Shown here: positions 42,718 to 48,048 of the stretch, piece after piece
Layout: the number at the start of each line of letters is the position of its first letter
Numbering within the stretch: position 1 is the first letter of the stretch
Assembly: GCA_963784045.1 (NCBI GenBank)
Contig: CAWAPZ010000005.1
Location: 330,433-394,432 of the forward strand
Direction of reading: 5' to 3'
Length of the DNA: 64,000 nt
From: Vicinamibacterales bacterium
GTDB taxonomy: Bacteria > Acidobacteriota > Vicinamibacteria > Vicinamibacterales > JAMQPK01
Position numbers and translations under genes: made by a program
Notes under the pieces: model-generated
Databases searched by the model: none
What the model was told of the DNA's origin: nothing
Seen by the model: the letters and a program-made list of their open reading frames with translations, nothing else

Positions 42718-43362
42718 TTAGCAGCGTAGTTGCCGCTTGTAGGTACGCTCGAACTCGCGGACGAAGTCATCCTGTGACGGGAAGTCGGTCACCTTTCGAT
42801 TCCAGATCCGCTCGGCTTCCGTGAACACGCGCTTCCGAAGCTGGGGACTCGCCGCGTCGATCCTCTGCAGGCTCGGCGACAGCGCACGCATCGCGCGCGC
42901 CTGAAGCTTCGGATCGCCGGTGAGCAGCTCGTGCACGAGATTCACGACGAAGACCTCCTCGAGTGCGCTCGGGAGGTCTCCCACTTGCTGACAATGCGCA
43001 GCCGCCGCGTTGTACAAGCCGTGATGCGCAGCCACGAATCCCTCCACCGTCTGGCCCTCGGGTTGAAAGTTGGATAGGGCGAGACTGATGCTGCGGAGGT
43101 GATAAAGCGGGGGATCGCCGTTAATGAAGTAGCCAAGATACGGCGCCGCGTCCGCCGCGTTCTTCAGAAACAAGACAGCTTGACCGTCTTTCACGAGGCT
43201 CGGGATACCGGCCTTCTCGAACGAAATCATGAACGACGATCGCTTGTCACGCGCCTGAGCCGGGGCGGCCGACAGCTTTTTCAGCAGAGAGATGAGACGC
43301 TGAGGGCCGTCGGCGAGCTGCTGCGCGTCGATCTCGAGGACTACCATTTCGCGACTGAACAT
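42718..43362 (-). CDS. Hypothetical protein, N-terminal half resembling a CRR6/DUF1817-like domain
   Basis: Good RBS (GGAGG) and codon bias; pattern LKKLSAAPAQAR...FMISFE...FLKNAADAAPYLGYF recalls CRR6-like domains (weak, by eye). Confidence 0.6.
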   Translation of the reverse strand: MFSREMVVLEIDAQQLADGPQRLISLLKKLSAAPAQARDKRSSFMISFEKAGIPSLVKDGQAVLFLKNAADAAPYLGYFINGDPPLYHLRSISLALSNFQPEGQTVEGFVAAHHGLYNAAAAHCQQVGDLPSALEEVFVVNLVHELLTGDPKLQARAMRALSPSLQRIDAASPQLRKRVFTEAERIWNRKVTDFPSQDDFVREFERTYKRQLRC

Positions 43363-43431
43363 GGATACCTCCAGTCACCGTGGCCGGAAACCCGGAGTAT
43401 ACGCTTGGGCAGTGTGTGCATAATAGGCCCG

Positions 43432-44643
43432 ATGCCGGTCGTCTTTGTTCACGGTGTGAACACCCGCAAGAGCGAGCCCGGGTACGACGCGCGTGTACTT
43501 ATGACCGAGCGGTTCCTGCGCGATCACCTCGCTGGGGTCTCTCTCGGCGGAACGACCGTAAAGACGTGGTCGGTTATGTTCCCCTACTGGGGCGACCTCG
43601 CCACCAAGTTTGCCTGGAACATGGCCTCACTGCCGAGCGGCGTCGTGAACGCGCTGGGCGGCGGCATCGACGACAACCTGCGCCCGCTCGTCGCTGTGAT
43701 CGAAGACGGACTGGCCGACGCGAAAGCCGCGGGTCAGCAACCGTTGCTGACTCTCGCGACCAAACGCGGTCTTCCCGCGGCGATGGACGTCGTATCCGAC
43801 CTGCTGCTCGAAAGCGCGCCTGCCGCGCAGGCGGCGTCTCTCGTTGACTTTCTGGTTGCCGCGCAACGTTATGCCGATGCGAATCCGCGACCGGCGTGGC
43901 TCTCGACGCTCGCGACCGACGAGCAGTTTTTGAACAAGCTCGCGACCGAAGCCACCCCGGCATCCGCGAACGTGCAGGCACTGGGTGGCGGCGGGGCCGT
44001 GCTCGGCACACTCGCCGCTGCCGGCGCAAAGTTCAAGGCGGCGGTCAAATCGGCCGCTGGCACGATGCTCGATCGATCCGGAGACTTCGCATCGACGAAG
44101 CTCCTCGCCTGGCAGCGGAAATCGCTCAACGCTAACCTCGGGCGATTCTTCGGCGACGTCTTCATCTATCTCGATACCCGAGGCGACACCTCCAAGCCGG
44201 GCGCGATTCCGTCCCTGATCCTTGGCGCGATCGACAAGGCTCGCGCGGACGCTCCCGCCGGAGAACCACTCGTTATCGTTGCCCACAGTCTTGGCGGCGT
44301 CATCACGTTCGATCTGCTGTCGTCCTACCGTCCGGATCTGACCGTCGATTTACTCGTAACCGTCGGATCGCAGGTGTCGCACTTCGAAGAGATCAAGCGA
44401 TTCAAGAGCAGCGATCCCGCCGTTGGTGCGCCGAACCGAGCGTCCACGCCGCCCAATATCCTGCGGTGGATCAACGTGTTCGATGAAGTCGACATCTTCG
44501 CGTACGCCTGCGAGAAGGTCTTCGATCGTGTGGTCGACTTCTCGTACGACACGAAAACGTACGTGGTGAAGTCCCACGGCGCGTACTTCGAACAGGACCG
44601 CTTCTACGCGCGCCTTCGCGCGCGGGTCGACCAGCTGCCATGA
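43432..44643 (+). CDS. Alpha/beta-hydrolase (lipase-like) with large internal insertion
   Basis: Oxyanion VFVHGV; PYWGD; nucleophile elbow AHSLGG; VTVGSQ; WINVFDEVD; SHGAY; no signal peptide. Confidence 0.85.
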   Translation: MPVVFVHGVNTRKSEPGYDARVLMTERFLRDHLAGVSLGGTTVKTWSVMFPYWGDLATKFAWNMASLPSGVVNALGGGIDDNLRPLVAVIEDGLADAKAAGQQPLLTLATKRGLPAAMDVVSDLLLESAPAAQAASLVDFLVAAQRYADANPRPAWLSTLATDEQFLNKLATEATPASANVQALGGGGAVLGTLAAAGAKFKAAVKSAAGTMLDRSGDFASTKLLAWQRKSLNANLGRFFGDVFIYLDTRGDTSKPGAIPSLILGAIDKARADAPAGEPLVIVAHSLGGVITFDLLSSYRPDLTVDLLVTVGSQVSHFEEIKRFKSSDPAVGAPNRASTPPNILRWINVFDEVDIFAYACEKVFDRVVDFSYDTKTYVVKSHGAYFEQDRFYARLRARVDQLP

Positions 44644-45773: not shown

Positions 45774-46972
45774 CCACGCTTCGCATTCGCTTTGGCGACG
45801 ACATGCCAGCGGCAACGGTCGAGGTCATCGCGCCGGACCTCGAAGTCCTCGACCGGATCATGATGAGCGCGGGGCGTTCGCGCACGATCGATGTGGACTC
45901 CCCCGCCACATTTTTGCGCGTGAATCTGCCGTCAGGTCAGGCGGTCACCGTGGAAGATCCCGGCAACTTCGATCGTGTCATCACGTTGCGCGGACTCAAG
46001 GCTCGAGGACGGCTGACCGGGACGGAGGCCATTTCAGGATTCTCGGCGCCGCCGTTCGACCCTGGCATGAATCCCGAGGAATTCGAGCCGGAAGAGATCA
46101 CGACGGCCGCGAGCGTGCGGCGCTACCACCAGGTTCGATCGACGAGCGATCCGTCGCTGGGAGAACTGGTGGAAGACGTGTCACTCGGTCCGTACGGGAC
46201 GGCGCGGCTGCAGCAGACCTCGGGTATCTCGATTCGCGGCGCCGCCGTCGGCCGCGGCCGCGAGGCGCACTGGGATCCCAACGGCGTCACCGTGACGCCG
46301 CCTCTGTCACTGTCCGTGGCGCAGACGTCGGGCGAACGGCTCGAACTGCGCGTGCCCGGCGATGTCCGCCGGATTTGGGCGCGCGCGGACGTGGTTCGCG
46401 ATCAGAGCAGCATTGCATTGAGCGTCAGGTTATCGACCGCCGAACCGGCGGCCGACGCCATCGTCGGCTATATGCACCGCGGCGACCTCGCGTCTGCCGA
46501 AGTCATGGCCGAATGGGTCGAGGAATCGCGCGACCTGCTGCGGGGGAAGATGGAGAACCCGTATGCGGCCTGTGTTGGCGCTTATCTGCTGCTGAGGCTT
46601 GGCCGCTTCGACGAGATGAGGGACTGGGCAAGGAATCTGGCAAATGCCTTTAGCGCCATACCTGACGGCCCCGTCATCTGGGCCACGCAGCTCCAGCGGG
46701 AATCGCCCGCGTCAGTTGCTGAAATTCGGACGTACCTGCTCCGCGCCGTTGACGCGGGTCTGCCCGTCTTCTCGGAAGGCCTCAGGCTGCTCATGGACGG
46801 ATTGAGGCTGCTCGGACCGGACGGTCGGCACGCGCGAGAACTCGTACAGGAGAAGGCGGGCGCGGTGTTGTGGTCCTCTCCGCTCACGGCCTCGATCCAC
46901 GCCGCACCGGACTACGTGCGAGGCAAGGTCCGTCCGGTCGACTACGACATTGCGCTAGCGGCGAAAGCGTAG
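45770..46972 (+). CDS. Uncharacterised caspase-associated protein (N-terminal beta domains, C-terminal helical domain)
   Basis: ATGA overlap with the caspase stop; motifs NPYAACVGAYLLLR, WARNLANAF, PDG, GLPVFSEG. Confidence 0.8.
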   Translation: MTTLRIRFGDDMPAATVEVIAPDLEVLDRIMMSAGRSRTIDVDSPATFLRVNLPSGQAVTVEDPGNFDRVITLRGLKARGRLTGTEAISGFSAPPFDPGMNPEEFEPEEITTAASVRRYHQVRSTSDPSLGELVEDVSLGPYGTARLQQTSGISIRGAAVGRGREAHWDPNGVTVTPPLSLSVAQTSGERLELRVPGDVRRIWARADVVRDQSSIALSVRLSTAEPAADAIVGYMHRGDLASAEVMAEWVEESRDLLRGKMENPYAACVGAYLLLRLGRFDEMRDWARNLANAFSAIPDGPVIWATQLQRESPASVAEIRTYLLRAVDAGLPVFSEGLRLLMDGLRLLGPDGRHARELVQEKAGAVLWSSPLTASIHAAPDYVRGKVRPVDYDIALAAKA

Positions 46973-46992
46973 AAGTCCAGACACGAAGCCAG

Positions 46993-48048
46993 ATGCCCGC
47001 GAACGAACCGGACCTGTTCTTGCCGATCGTCGCGGCCGCTTCGCGAGGCGCTGCCGGTTTTCTGGATTGGACCACTGGGCTGCTCCGTCTGAACGCCGCG
47101 AGCGCCGCGTGGGACCGCGTGTCCAAATCACCCGATCTACGAACTCTGCCAGCCCGCGATCGGCTGCTCGTAGAAACTGTCACCCATGAAACCATTCACT
47201 TCCTGCAGATCGTCACCACCGGCTACTTGTATCGCTTTGCAGTCAAGTTGTTCGACCTGATTCGCGACTGCCTGCCGAAGCCCGTCCGCGCCATCGCCGA
47301 CATTCCGATTGCACCGTCGCGCATGCAGGCGGCTCGAATCACTGACCATATCGCCGCCCTGGATCGCACAGACGCCGATGGCTGCTCGGTACGTAGCCTG
47401 GCGGAGTGCCAGGCGATGCTGGCGCAGCTCCGGACGCATTGGACGGGCCTCACGCATGACGGATTCCTGGAGCGCACCGATTACATGCCAGAGGTCTACC
47501 GCCGTGCGTATCGGCTGGCGACGGTTTTCCTTGGCAAGGACGCGTTCGACAGCTATCCATTTCTCTCTTCTATGGCGCTCTGCTGTGACGATCCAGTGCG
47601 TGCGTTTCGCGTGCTGTGCTGCGCGACGCAGGACGCGAGCATGTCCGCGCCGCCGGCCGAGGACGTCCAAGCGTATGTCGAGCTGGTCAACATGCTCCAC
47701 CATCGGGGCCAGCTGCGCTTGCTCGGCACGGCAGCAGAAATGGTCAACGACCTCGGCAACCACCCGGTATACACCCCAGCGGTGCACGCGCTAAATGAGG
47801 TCTCCGGCCAGGGCGTGTTGCAGTACATGGCCGCGCCACATCTCGTCGACACGGCCATCGCTACGGCCGTGGCTCGACCAGCCGTGTACAACCCGGACGC
47901 CGAAGGCCAGCTGTTCGTGCGCGTGCCTGAGAACTGGCGACCCGATCTCGATCGAGCCGCGAAAGACAAAGAAGCGGAGTTCCTCGTGTTCCTGATGGGG
48001 ATTTCGACACGCCTCCTTCAGAACATTGCGACCGCGCGCACGGGGTGA
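46993..48048 (+). CDS. Hypothetical protein with HEXXH zinc-metallopeptidase motif
   Basis: THETIHFLQ; downstream SLAECQA Glu as candidate third ligand; 20 bp after the previous gene. Confidence 0.7.
   Translation: MPANEPDLFLPIVAAASRGAAGFLDWTTGLLRLNAASAAWDRVSKSPDLRTLPARDRLLVETVTHETIHFLQIVTTGYLYRFAVKLFDLIRDCLPKPVRAIADIPIAPSRMQAARITDHIAALDRTDADGCSVRSLAECQAMLAQLRTHWTGLTHDGFLERTDYMPEVYRRAYRLATVFLGKDAFDSYPFLSSMALCCDDPVRAFRVLCCATQDASMSAPPAEDVQAYVELVNMLHHRGQLRLLGTAAEMVNDLGNHPVYTPAVHALNEVSGQGVLQYMAAPHLVDTAIATAVARPAVYNPDAEGQLFVRVPENWRPDLDRAAKDKEAEFLVFLMGISTRLLQNIATARTG

Follow-up and report, generated by a model that had tools for sequence, protein, structure and literature searches.

A hydrolase-caspase-Y4kD_C gene trio in a Vicinamibacterales genome as a putative horizontally acquired protease-effector cassette

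We analysed a stretch of 64,000 nt (hereinafter the window) from the genome of a Vicinamibacterales bacterium (GCA_963784045.1, contig CAWAPZ010000005.1, positions 330,433-394,432 of the forward strand), in which three overlapping genes on one strand code for a lipase-like α/β-hydrolase, a caspase-like protease and a protein of the Y4kD_C family (hereinafter the partner). Read directly from the sequence and numbered from the first letter of the window, the consecutive genes are joined by ATGA overlaps (CCATGAGC at 44640 and CCATGACC at 45770). The stop codon of the partner gene (TAG, 46970-46972) is followed after a gap of 20 bp (46973-46992) by the ATG, at 46993, of a gene for a protein with an HEXXH motif, and the start of the hydrolase gene at 43432 is separated by 69 bp (43363-43431) from that of a divergent gene at 43362 (Table 1). 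This layout had been given in a first-pass annotation, made by a model from the letters alone, which also held the hydrolase nucleophile, the caspase dyad and the HEXXH motif to be intact; direct reading bears out every position, overlap and gap, and the residues concerned are conserved in 137/137, 15/15 and 8/8 relatives of the respective proteins. None of the proteins has an obvious signal peptide as judged by eye.

The extent of the system was delimited through the partner. A contig scan of one genome per species with an alignment of partner sequences recovered 18 partner-bearing loci spanning at least seven phylum-level groups (a scan with the single partner sequence found none), and the five window proteins were compared with these loci by tblastn. 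The caspase is found in 17 of them, being missing in L016, and the hydrolase in 16, being missing in L005 and L016 and truncated by the contig end in L013. The trio thus counted occurs in the same order in 16/18 loci, from Acidobacteriota, Nitrospirales, Steroidobacteraceae, Chthoniobacterales, Longimicrobium, Planctomycetaceae, Krumholzibacteriia and Gemmatimonadaceae, and across the 18 loci the genes that are present always follow one another as hydrolase, caspase and partner on one strand. In L005, an open reading frame (ORF) for a 1088-residue Sortilin/BNR-repeat protein (3595-6861) occupies the expected place of the hydrolase; in L016 (7373-9122), the partner has no detectable caspase or hydrolase beside it and is preceded by an ORF for 206 residues without a Pfam family. 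Homologs of the HEXXH protein and of the divergent gene product were recovered in 0/18 loci each, and all-against-all BLASTP of the crude ORF sets of the same loci yielded no further ORF family common to more than two of them. The HEXXH protein belongs to a small family of its own, with H65, E66 and H69 (47185-47199) invariant in all 8 homologs; in both metagenome loci (L052 and L053) its homolog stands without the trio. Neither it nor the divergent protein has a plasmid homolog, and the local copies of Pfam, NCBIfam and PADLOC gave no match to these two proteins or to the partner.

As judged from this conserved neighbourhood, the functional unit is composed of the hydrolase, caspase and Y4kD_C genes, not of five genes; the HEXXH and divergent genes are passengers of the same small island. 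The first-pass annotation had drawn the unit around all five. The co-occurrence of homologs that it had asked for is indeed seen for the caspase and the hydrolase, and of the two unknown genes that it had assigned to the system one, the partner, does belong (as a member of Pfam family PF27295 and not an orphan), while the HEXXH gene does not. Its further suggestion, drawn from the want of a known sensor, that the HEXXH protein and a 'CRR6-like' divergent gene provide a sensing module finds no support, as neither accompanies the trio; the CRR6-like label itself corresponds to no Pfam, NCBIfam or PADLOC family.

Table 1. Features of the hydrolase-caspase-Y4kD_C locus and its borders (window positions)
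Feature	Positions	Strand	Basis
Remnant of DUF5615/PIN_10 toxin gene; left border debris, outside the system	42567..42689	+	41 residues 85% identical to congener toxin
Divergent 214-residue orphan gene (P0005), outside the conserved system	42718..43362	-	no family, 0/18 loci
Lipase-like α/β-hydrolase, putative zymogen effector (P0001, 403 residues)	43432..44643	+	triad, AlphaFold2 (AF2) model
Hydrolase twin motif copy 1, N73-A74-L75-G76, candidate protease site	43648..43659	+	conservation, low-confidence loop
Hydrolase twin motif copy 2, Q182-A183-L184-G185, candidate protease site	43975..43986	+	conservation, loop pLDDT <50
Hydrolase R250-G251 (YLDxRG), alternative candidate R|G cleavage site	44179..44184	+	conservation
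Caspase-like C14 protease (P0004, 377 residues)	44640..45773	+	Pfam, PADLOC models
Y4kD_C (PF27295) partner (P0002, 400 residues), putative caspase-binding regulator or sensor	45770..46972	+	family assignment, AF2 model
HEXXH protein (P0003, 351 residues), small orphan family, not a conserved neighbour of the trio	46993..48048	+	8 homologs
Insertion sequence (IS) integrase (rve_3) C-terminal fragment; right border debris	48045..48203	+	rve_3 match

The first gene of the trio encodes an enzyme whose nucleophile lies in an AHSLGG motif (S286, 44287-44289); S286, the preceding H285, D354 and H382 are kept throughout the 137 diverse relatives, the triad being S286/D354/H382. Pfam returns only weak, sub-threshold abhydrolase matches, and a profile search places the protein in a large family (2201 representative clusters at E<=1e-3, 561 at E<=1e-30), of which the best 150 clusters are mostly full-length at ~400 residues. 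The AF2 model (mean predicted local distance difference test score, pLDDT, 82.8) has a minimal α/β core with a ~200-residue helical region between the early strands and the nucleophile strand, and loops of low confidence at 61-80, 178-186 and 216-219. In Foldseek searches of this model against PDB the closest folds, all weak matches (E>=1e-3), were the DDHD domain of Nir2, Bacillus subtilis LipA, monoacylglycerol lipases (MGL) and TesA; the predicted structure has its likeness among DDHD/PLA1-like domains and lipases of the LipA and monoacylglycerol types.

A short motif occurs twice in the hydrolase, as V-N-A-L-G-G in the flexible loop at 72-77 and as V-Q-A-L-G-G in that at 181-186, and the two loops flank a helical insert of ~110 residues. 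In the first copy, which has a loop pLDDT of 60-67, L75 is kept in 118/119 and G76 in 115/119 close homologs. The family consensus of the motif over the 137 representatives is E-[AST]-[FL]-G, and 101 of these have [EQDN]-x-[LFM]-G in both loops, as against 290/1811 arbitrary 30-residue windows. Loops of one protein are also more alike than loops paired at random (mean best 7-mer score 19.18 vs 16.11 +/- 0.31 for shuffled pairings, with 0/2000 shuffles reaching the observed value), and the two copies change together, e.g., ESFG/ESFG, QAMG/QALG and LLGMGAA/LIGMGAA. This co-variation is the pattern expected of two sites that are read by one co-evolving protease, and we infer from it that N73-G76 and Q182-G185 may be the two places at which the hydrolase is cut; the paired loop motifs of this hydrolase family, and their co-variation, are new here. 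The hydrolase further has just one R-G dipeptide conserved among the diverse relatives (R250 kept in 127/137, G251 in 100/137), which is present in distant plasmid homologs too. R250|G251 is an alternative candidate site that fits the R|G rule reported for the hydrolase of a described caspase module, LcHydrolase (see below).

The caspase comprises a C14 domain and a β-rich C-terminal domain of ~90 residues and no others, and is single-copy in its genome. It is recognized by Pfam Peptidase_C14 (1.3e-8) and by the PADLOC 'caspase' model (1.8e-15), while its match to the NCBIfam model caspase_w_EACC1 is far under the cut-off (35 vs 140 bits). Its catalytic dyad, H130 of a GHG motif (45027-45029) and C181 of a DAC motif (45180-45182), is invariant in all 15 orthologs. 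Two stretches of the protease, QAFG (222-225) and EDFG (142-145), resemble the twin motif of the hydrolase but were not taken as autoprocessing sites; the former would, by its correspondence to animal caspases, lie on the substrate-binding strand.

The partner has 53 homologs at E<=0.001, all of which carry, as does the partner itself, a precomputed assignment to PF27295.1, named Y4kD_C in the Atlas; its family membership is this precomputed assignment, the model being absent from the local Pfam copy. It is homologous to Y4kD of the symbiosis plasmid pNGR234a (tblastn, 5e-9). The AF2 model (pLDDT 84.7, predicted template modelling score 0.84) shows an N-terminal β-sandwich, a linker (82-110), a second β domain and a helical C-terminal part resembling tetratricopeptide repeats (TPR). 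The linker is disordered and hypervariable, with no conserved protease-site motif seen in it. Foldseek against PDB gave no full-length match to the partner, only TPR-type matches to the C-terminal 140 residues.

Co-folding of the caspase with its partners had been proposed along with the first-pass annotation, and for the Y4kD_C protein the model supports binding: the two are predicted to form a complex, with an interface score (ipSAE) of 0.89 (0.89-0.90 over three runs) as against 0.00 for the best of three controls. In calibration the corresponding mark was reached by 58/80 solved complexes and 2/110 mismatched pairs, counts that hold only roughly here because our own alignments were used for the complex prediction. 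The runs share at least 79% of their contacts, with a partner pLDDT of at least 79. On the caspase side the predicted contacts fall at 133-136, 185-191 and 216-221, beside H130 and C181, and on the partner side at 237-242, 342-347 and 363-391.

The distribution of the trio is that of an accessory element. The partner profile detected nothing in 60 relatives of the host (24 of the same genus, 2 of the same family and 34 of the same order), including 0/42 high-quality genomes. Among 400 Gammaproteobacteria, a sample that says nothing about LcHydrolase itself, a full-length hydrolase ortholog was found once, in the carrier on which the sample was centred; 21 weak hydrolase matches cover the nucleophile region only, with 0 having a caspase within +/-1.5 kb. 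A tblastn search of plasmids with the partner matched 27 records. In pNGR234a of Sinorhizobium fredii NGR234 (NC_000914.2, 376354-380347), a hypothetical protein of 434 residues, a caspase family protein of 347 and Y4kD of 549, likewise annotated as hypothetical, represent the three families in the same order as in the window (hydrolase 35% identical, 4e-59; caspase 31%, 1e-23; Y4kD_C domain 29% over 163 residues). The locus adjoins a RES toxin and IS21; Y4kD is longer than the window partner and differs in its N-terminal part. The same trio occurs in other rhizobial plasmids: A. pusense pR76, where its neighbours include RES, HNH and Vsr genes together with a large helicase, and S. meliloti pAK76, where a TrlF ATPase and a restriction endonuclease are close by.

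Other plasmids carry the caspase and the Y4kD_C domain in altered company. A single protein of A. leguminum p4 combines caspase and Y4kD_C, with a hydrolase homolog in front (3e-30) and an integrase and QatA near; a second caspase-family gene there is convergent to the fused one. In S. americanum plasmid B (L057, 3995-8574), a divergent patatin-like phospholipase gene is followed by caspase, Y4kD_C and metallo-β-lactamase (MBL)-like genes, the MBL match lying under the Pfam cut-off (20.9 vs 22.7 bits). A B. barranii plasmid (L029, 3163-10749) codes for an M12 metallopeptidase, a caspase 32% identical to that of the window over its full length, and a 1788-residue protein with two trypsin domains, Y4kD_C and a phospholipase D (PLD) domain. 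Because plasmid cassettes thus pair them with hydrolase, MBL-like, patatin and PLD genes, the caspase and Y4kD_C appear to be a recurrent core with a varying effector. More tentatively, R. ruizarguesonis has a hydrolase-caspase-pYEATS protein series in which comparison of the partner profile with the pYEATS protein is suggestive only (hhalign E 0.0055, low probability), and one Atlas cluster of pYEATS proteins has Y4kD_C in 56% of its members. A third gene in Deinococcus and a 536-residue gene product in Streptomyces showed no similarity to the partner or caspase. On the strength of these sequence comparisons, the trio is a horizontally acquired, mobile accessory cassette, and the first-pass idea of a mobile, caspase-centred proteolytic cassette with a latent hydrolase is supported: the trio recurs across phyla, was not found in 60 relatives and is of a described module type. 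The accompanying expectation that homologs would be enriched near defence or mobile genes is borne out on the plasmids and not among 117 chromosomal flank ORFs.

The pairing of a caspase with an α/β-hydrolase has precedents. According to Kaur et al. (2020, PMC7159879), it occurs in conflict systems of the vWA-MoxR/VMAP kind, where the caspase domains of VMAP systems always have a neighbouring α/β-hydrolase. For the module of Lysobacter capsici AZ78, Evans et al. (bioRxiv 10.1101/2025.11.14.688446) report that LcHydrolase is a zymogen which LcCaspase cleaves at two sites, R73|G and R117|G, that its N- and C-terminal fragments together kill E. coli, and that HHpred of LcHydrolase points to lipases and oligopeptidases; the same work describes protease-MBL nuclease modules in which a zymogen is cut twice by the neighbouring protease (with Tuck et al. 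cited there). The caspase with an α/β-hydrolase is an already described protease-effector module (Kaur et al., 2020; Evans et al., 2025).

The window trio shares with such modules a hydrolase gene directly upstream of the caspase gene, both products being catalytically intact, and the predicted lipase-like fold of the hydrolase. Two protease-site-like motifs that flank an internal segment and an R-G dipeptide conserved upstream of the nucleophile are further likenesses; by analogy, the twin loops may parallel the two published cuts, by which an inhibitory piece is taken out of the middle of LcHydrolase. There are differences too. The window hydrolase is of ~400 residues as against ~300 for LcHydrolase, the latter length inferred from the published fragment sizes; the window caspase is short and, unlike those of the described modules, not fused to a STAND, WD40 or VMAP sensor; and the system has a third component in the separate Y4kD_C protein, unlike the described caspase-hydrolase modules. 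The C-terminal half of the window hydrolase matches shorter plasmid hydrolases of Streptomyces and others, and such a Streptomyces plasmid hydrolase (E 4e-15) has an AAA ATPase and a TPR protein of the FxsT type as neighbours. With the protease-MBL modules the link is through S. americanum plasmid B, where caspase and Y4kD_C precede the MBL-like gene; the effector in the window is an α/β-hydrolase, not an MBL nuclease. In bacterial gasdermin systems and type IV Thoeris, a caspase-like protease serves as executioner or activator of cell death. Both differ from the window system in their effector and partner families: Pfam and PADLOC matches of the five proteins include no gasdermin family, and there is no TIR among the five genes. 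Searches with PADLOC and NCBIfam returned no named system for the gene set, the caspase alone being matched, and a literature search found no publication on Y4kD_C/PF27295 or on y4kD in this sense; the 20 uncharacterized sensor types listed in the supplement of Evans et al. may nonetheless already include partners of the Y4kD_C type. New in this analysis are the Y4kD_C protein as a separate third component, the distinct twin-site motif and the predicted binding of caspase and partner.

Taken together, we favour, at somewhat better than even confidence, the reading that this is a three-gene, horizontally acquired protease-effector cassette in which the caspase would unlock a latent lipase-like hydrolase, with the Y4kD_C protein clamping the caspase until a trigger arrives. 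The first gene would provide a cytoplasmic lipase/esterase-like α/β-hydrolase made as an inactive precursor, the second a caspase-like cysteine protease, and the third a Y4kD_C-family protein that would cover the side of the caspase adjoining the catalytic dyad and hold or tune the protease until the trigger, most likely an invading phage or another mobile element. The activated caspase might then cut the hydrolase at the two matching exposed loops (N/Q-A-L-G) around the ~110-residue helical insert, with R250|G251 as an alternative or additional cut, and the cut hydrolase would attack lipids or esters, killing or arresting the cell. We infer the cleavage, the substrate, the trigger and the defence role alike; a role in defence is plausible, with the plasmid contexts and the patchiness as its basis.

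Several observations weigh against this reading. One partner-bearing locus lacks the hydrolase and another has the partner alone. The complex score expresses model confidence, and the model would look the same for an inhibitor, an activator or a substrate. The twin motif (E/Q/N-x-[LF]-G) differs from R|G, and LcHydrolase enters the comparison by its published description only; every fold match of the hydrolase lies at E>=1e-3, and the hydrolase and partner match no PADLOC model. The flanks of the window locus are unremarkable, with genes for a TonB-type receptor, SurE, an aminotransferase, an alkaline phosphatase and a two-component system. Housekeeping genes likewise make up most of the 117 flank ORFs around the 18 genome loci, and the PADLOC matches of these ORFs are few and generic, with one member per family (two for mad8) and the kinase-type PD-T4-6 dominant.

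A more specific version of the clamp, doubtful as a whole, would see in the Y4kD_C proteins a new class of sensors or guards of bacterial caspases, made as separate subunits and lacking an NTPase. These would clamp the substrate cleft through the TPR-like C-terminal part and a C-terminal strand and would let go upon binding of a phage factor or upon a cut of the hypervariable linker by a phage protease; the freed caspase, with a non-basic P-site specificity (E-x-[FL]-G), would excise the ~110-residue helical plug from a phospholipase-like zymogen, and the core would be re-used with MBL, PLD and patatin effectors.

Much of the same evidence can be arranged differently. Instead of sensing, the Y4kD_C protein could inhibit the caspase in the manner of an antitoxin or serve it as a decoy substrate; its loss, or a cut in its linker, would free the protease, and the trio would behave like a three-part toxin-antitoxin or addiction module of plasmids and islands. 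The predicted interface over the loops beside the dyad, the disordered and hypervariable linker, the copies on conjugative plasmids beside RES toxins and chromosomal flanks that are not defence islands are all compatible with this; however, the partner is fused to the caspase in A. leguminum and lies inside a giant multi-domain protease in B. barranii, arrangements that one would sooner expect of a sensor or scaffold domain than of a labile antitoxin, and its linker lacks a conserved protease-site motif, which leaves an addiction module unlikely in our judgement. It is less probable still that the trio is non-immune and serves the regulated proteolytic maturation of a lipid-remodelling enzyme, or a stress- or development-linked cell death in soil bacteria. 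The chromosomal neighbours, mostly metabolic or housekeeping, and the lack of a known phage trigger would suit such a role, and stress-response roles of protease-effector modules are raised by Evans et al. (2025); yet the extremely patchy distribution (0/60 relatives, 1/400 in the class sample) and carriage on plasmids beside restriction, RES and Qat genes fit conflict systems better than core physiology. Very improbable is the five-gene cassette, in which the HEXXH protein and the divergent orphan would serve the caspase as an as yet undescribed module for sensing or regulation. The HEXXH gene does start 20 bp past the partner on the same strand with no terminator-like site between, its motif does not vary within the family, the debris on either side encloses both genes in one island, and an HEXXH homolog (P0183) and a hydrolase homolog (P0074) from the same source each have a contig of 6614 bp on record (a lead only), but neither gene is in any of the 18 trio loci or has a plasmid homolog, both HEXXH loci are without the trio, and on the plasmids of S. 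americanum and A. tumefaciens the partner is followed by genes that bear no relation to the HEXXH protein.

It is becoming apparent that death effectors gated by a protease are a main principle of bacterial immunity, in parallel to eukaryotic caspase cascades. Should the favoured clamp mechanism hold, the sensor or regulator would here be a separate, uncharacterised family, as opposed to the protease-fused sensors of the described caspase-hydrolase modules, and one whose type locus, although part of a classic symbiosis plasmid (pNGR234a), has so far gone without annotation. The paired motifs offer directly testable candidate sites and hint at a caspase specificity other than the reported Arg|Gly. 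That the caspase-Y4kD_C core keeps turning up in new company, be it hydrolase, MBL-like, PLD or patatin genes, points to a trigger unit that is portable. If the partner were merely a structural subunit, the finding would shrink to another member of a known module.

The borders of the island were also re-examined, the first-pass annotation having described it as bracketed by a ruined PIN-toxin gene and an IS integrase scar. A Pfam scan of the window ORFs gave no match to the PIN remnant; the ruined toxin is real all the same, because its 41 encoded residues (42567-42689) match, at 85% identity, the C-terminus of a congener's intact DUF5615/PIN_10 toxin (DUF5615, 2.2e-23; PIN_10, 2.2e-6), which has a DUF433 antitoxin adjoining. 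The wider stretch 42346-42689 is what is left, after rearrangement, of a DUF433/DUF5615 (PIN-like) toxin-antitoxin pair, of which congener G020 has an intact version (L061, 334-956, minus strand), and its DNA is repeated in several congeners at 80-91% identity. On the right, the integrase fragment (48045-48203) scores 27.4 bits against the rve_3 cut-off of 26.5; its DNA (48056-48186) recurs, at 79-91% identity, at least five times on contigs C9 and C12 of this genome and also in congeners, and synteny with congener G010 restarts at ~48263, directly past the IS scar. The bracketing is thus upheld on both sides. No Rfam family was found in 42000-48400, no repeats were found within 42250-42760, and no sigma-70-like promoter was found; a terminator-like hairpin lies at 42714-42699 on the minus strand, at the divergent gene.

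Farther out, a 733-residue Ser/Thr protein kinase with TPR repeats (34714-36915, minus strand), probably a generic kinase, is the source of the PD-T4-6 and kinase matches of PADLOC in the window flank. Downstream of the two-component system are two adjoining ORFs of ~330-340 residues (50356-52358, minus strand) with no Pfam family at E<=1e-4. One of the 27 scanned window ORFs, within 20890-31103 or 55683-63493, matches Pfam TIR_2 (7.3e-20); it is at least 7 kb from the cassette, because it lies outside the ten ORFs nearest to it. In the genome loci L001-L018, CHAT-domain proteins are encoded by 2/117 flank ORFs (best E 8.9e-52), and some genomes therefore have a second caspase-clan protease near the trio.

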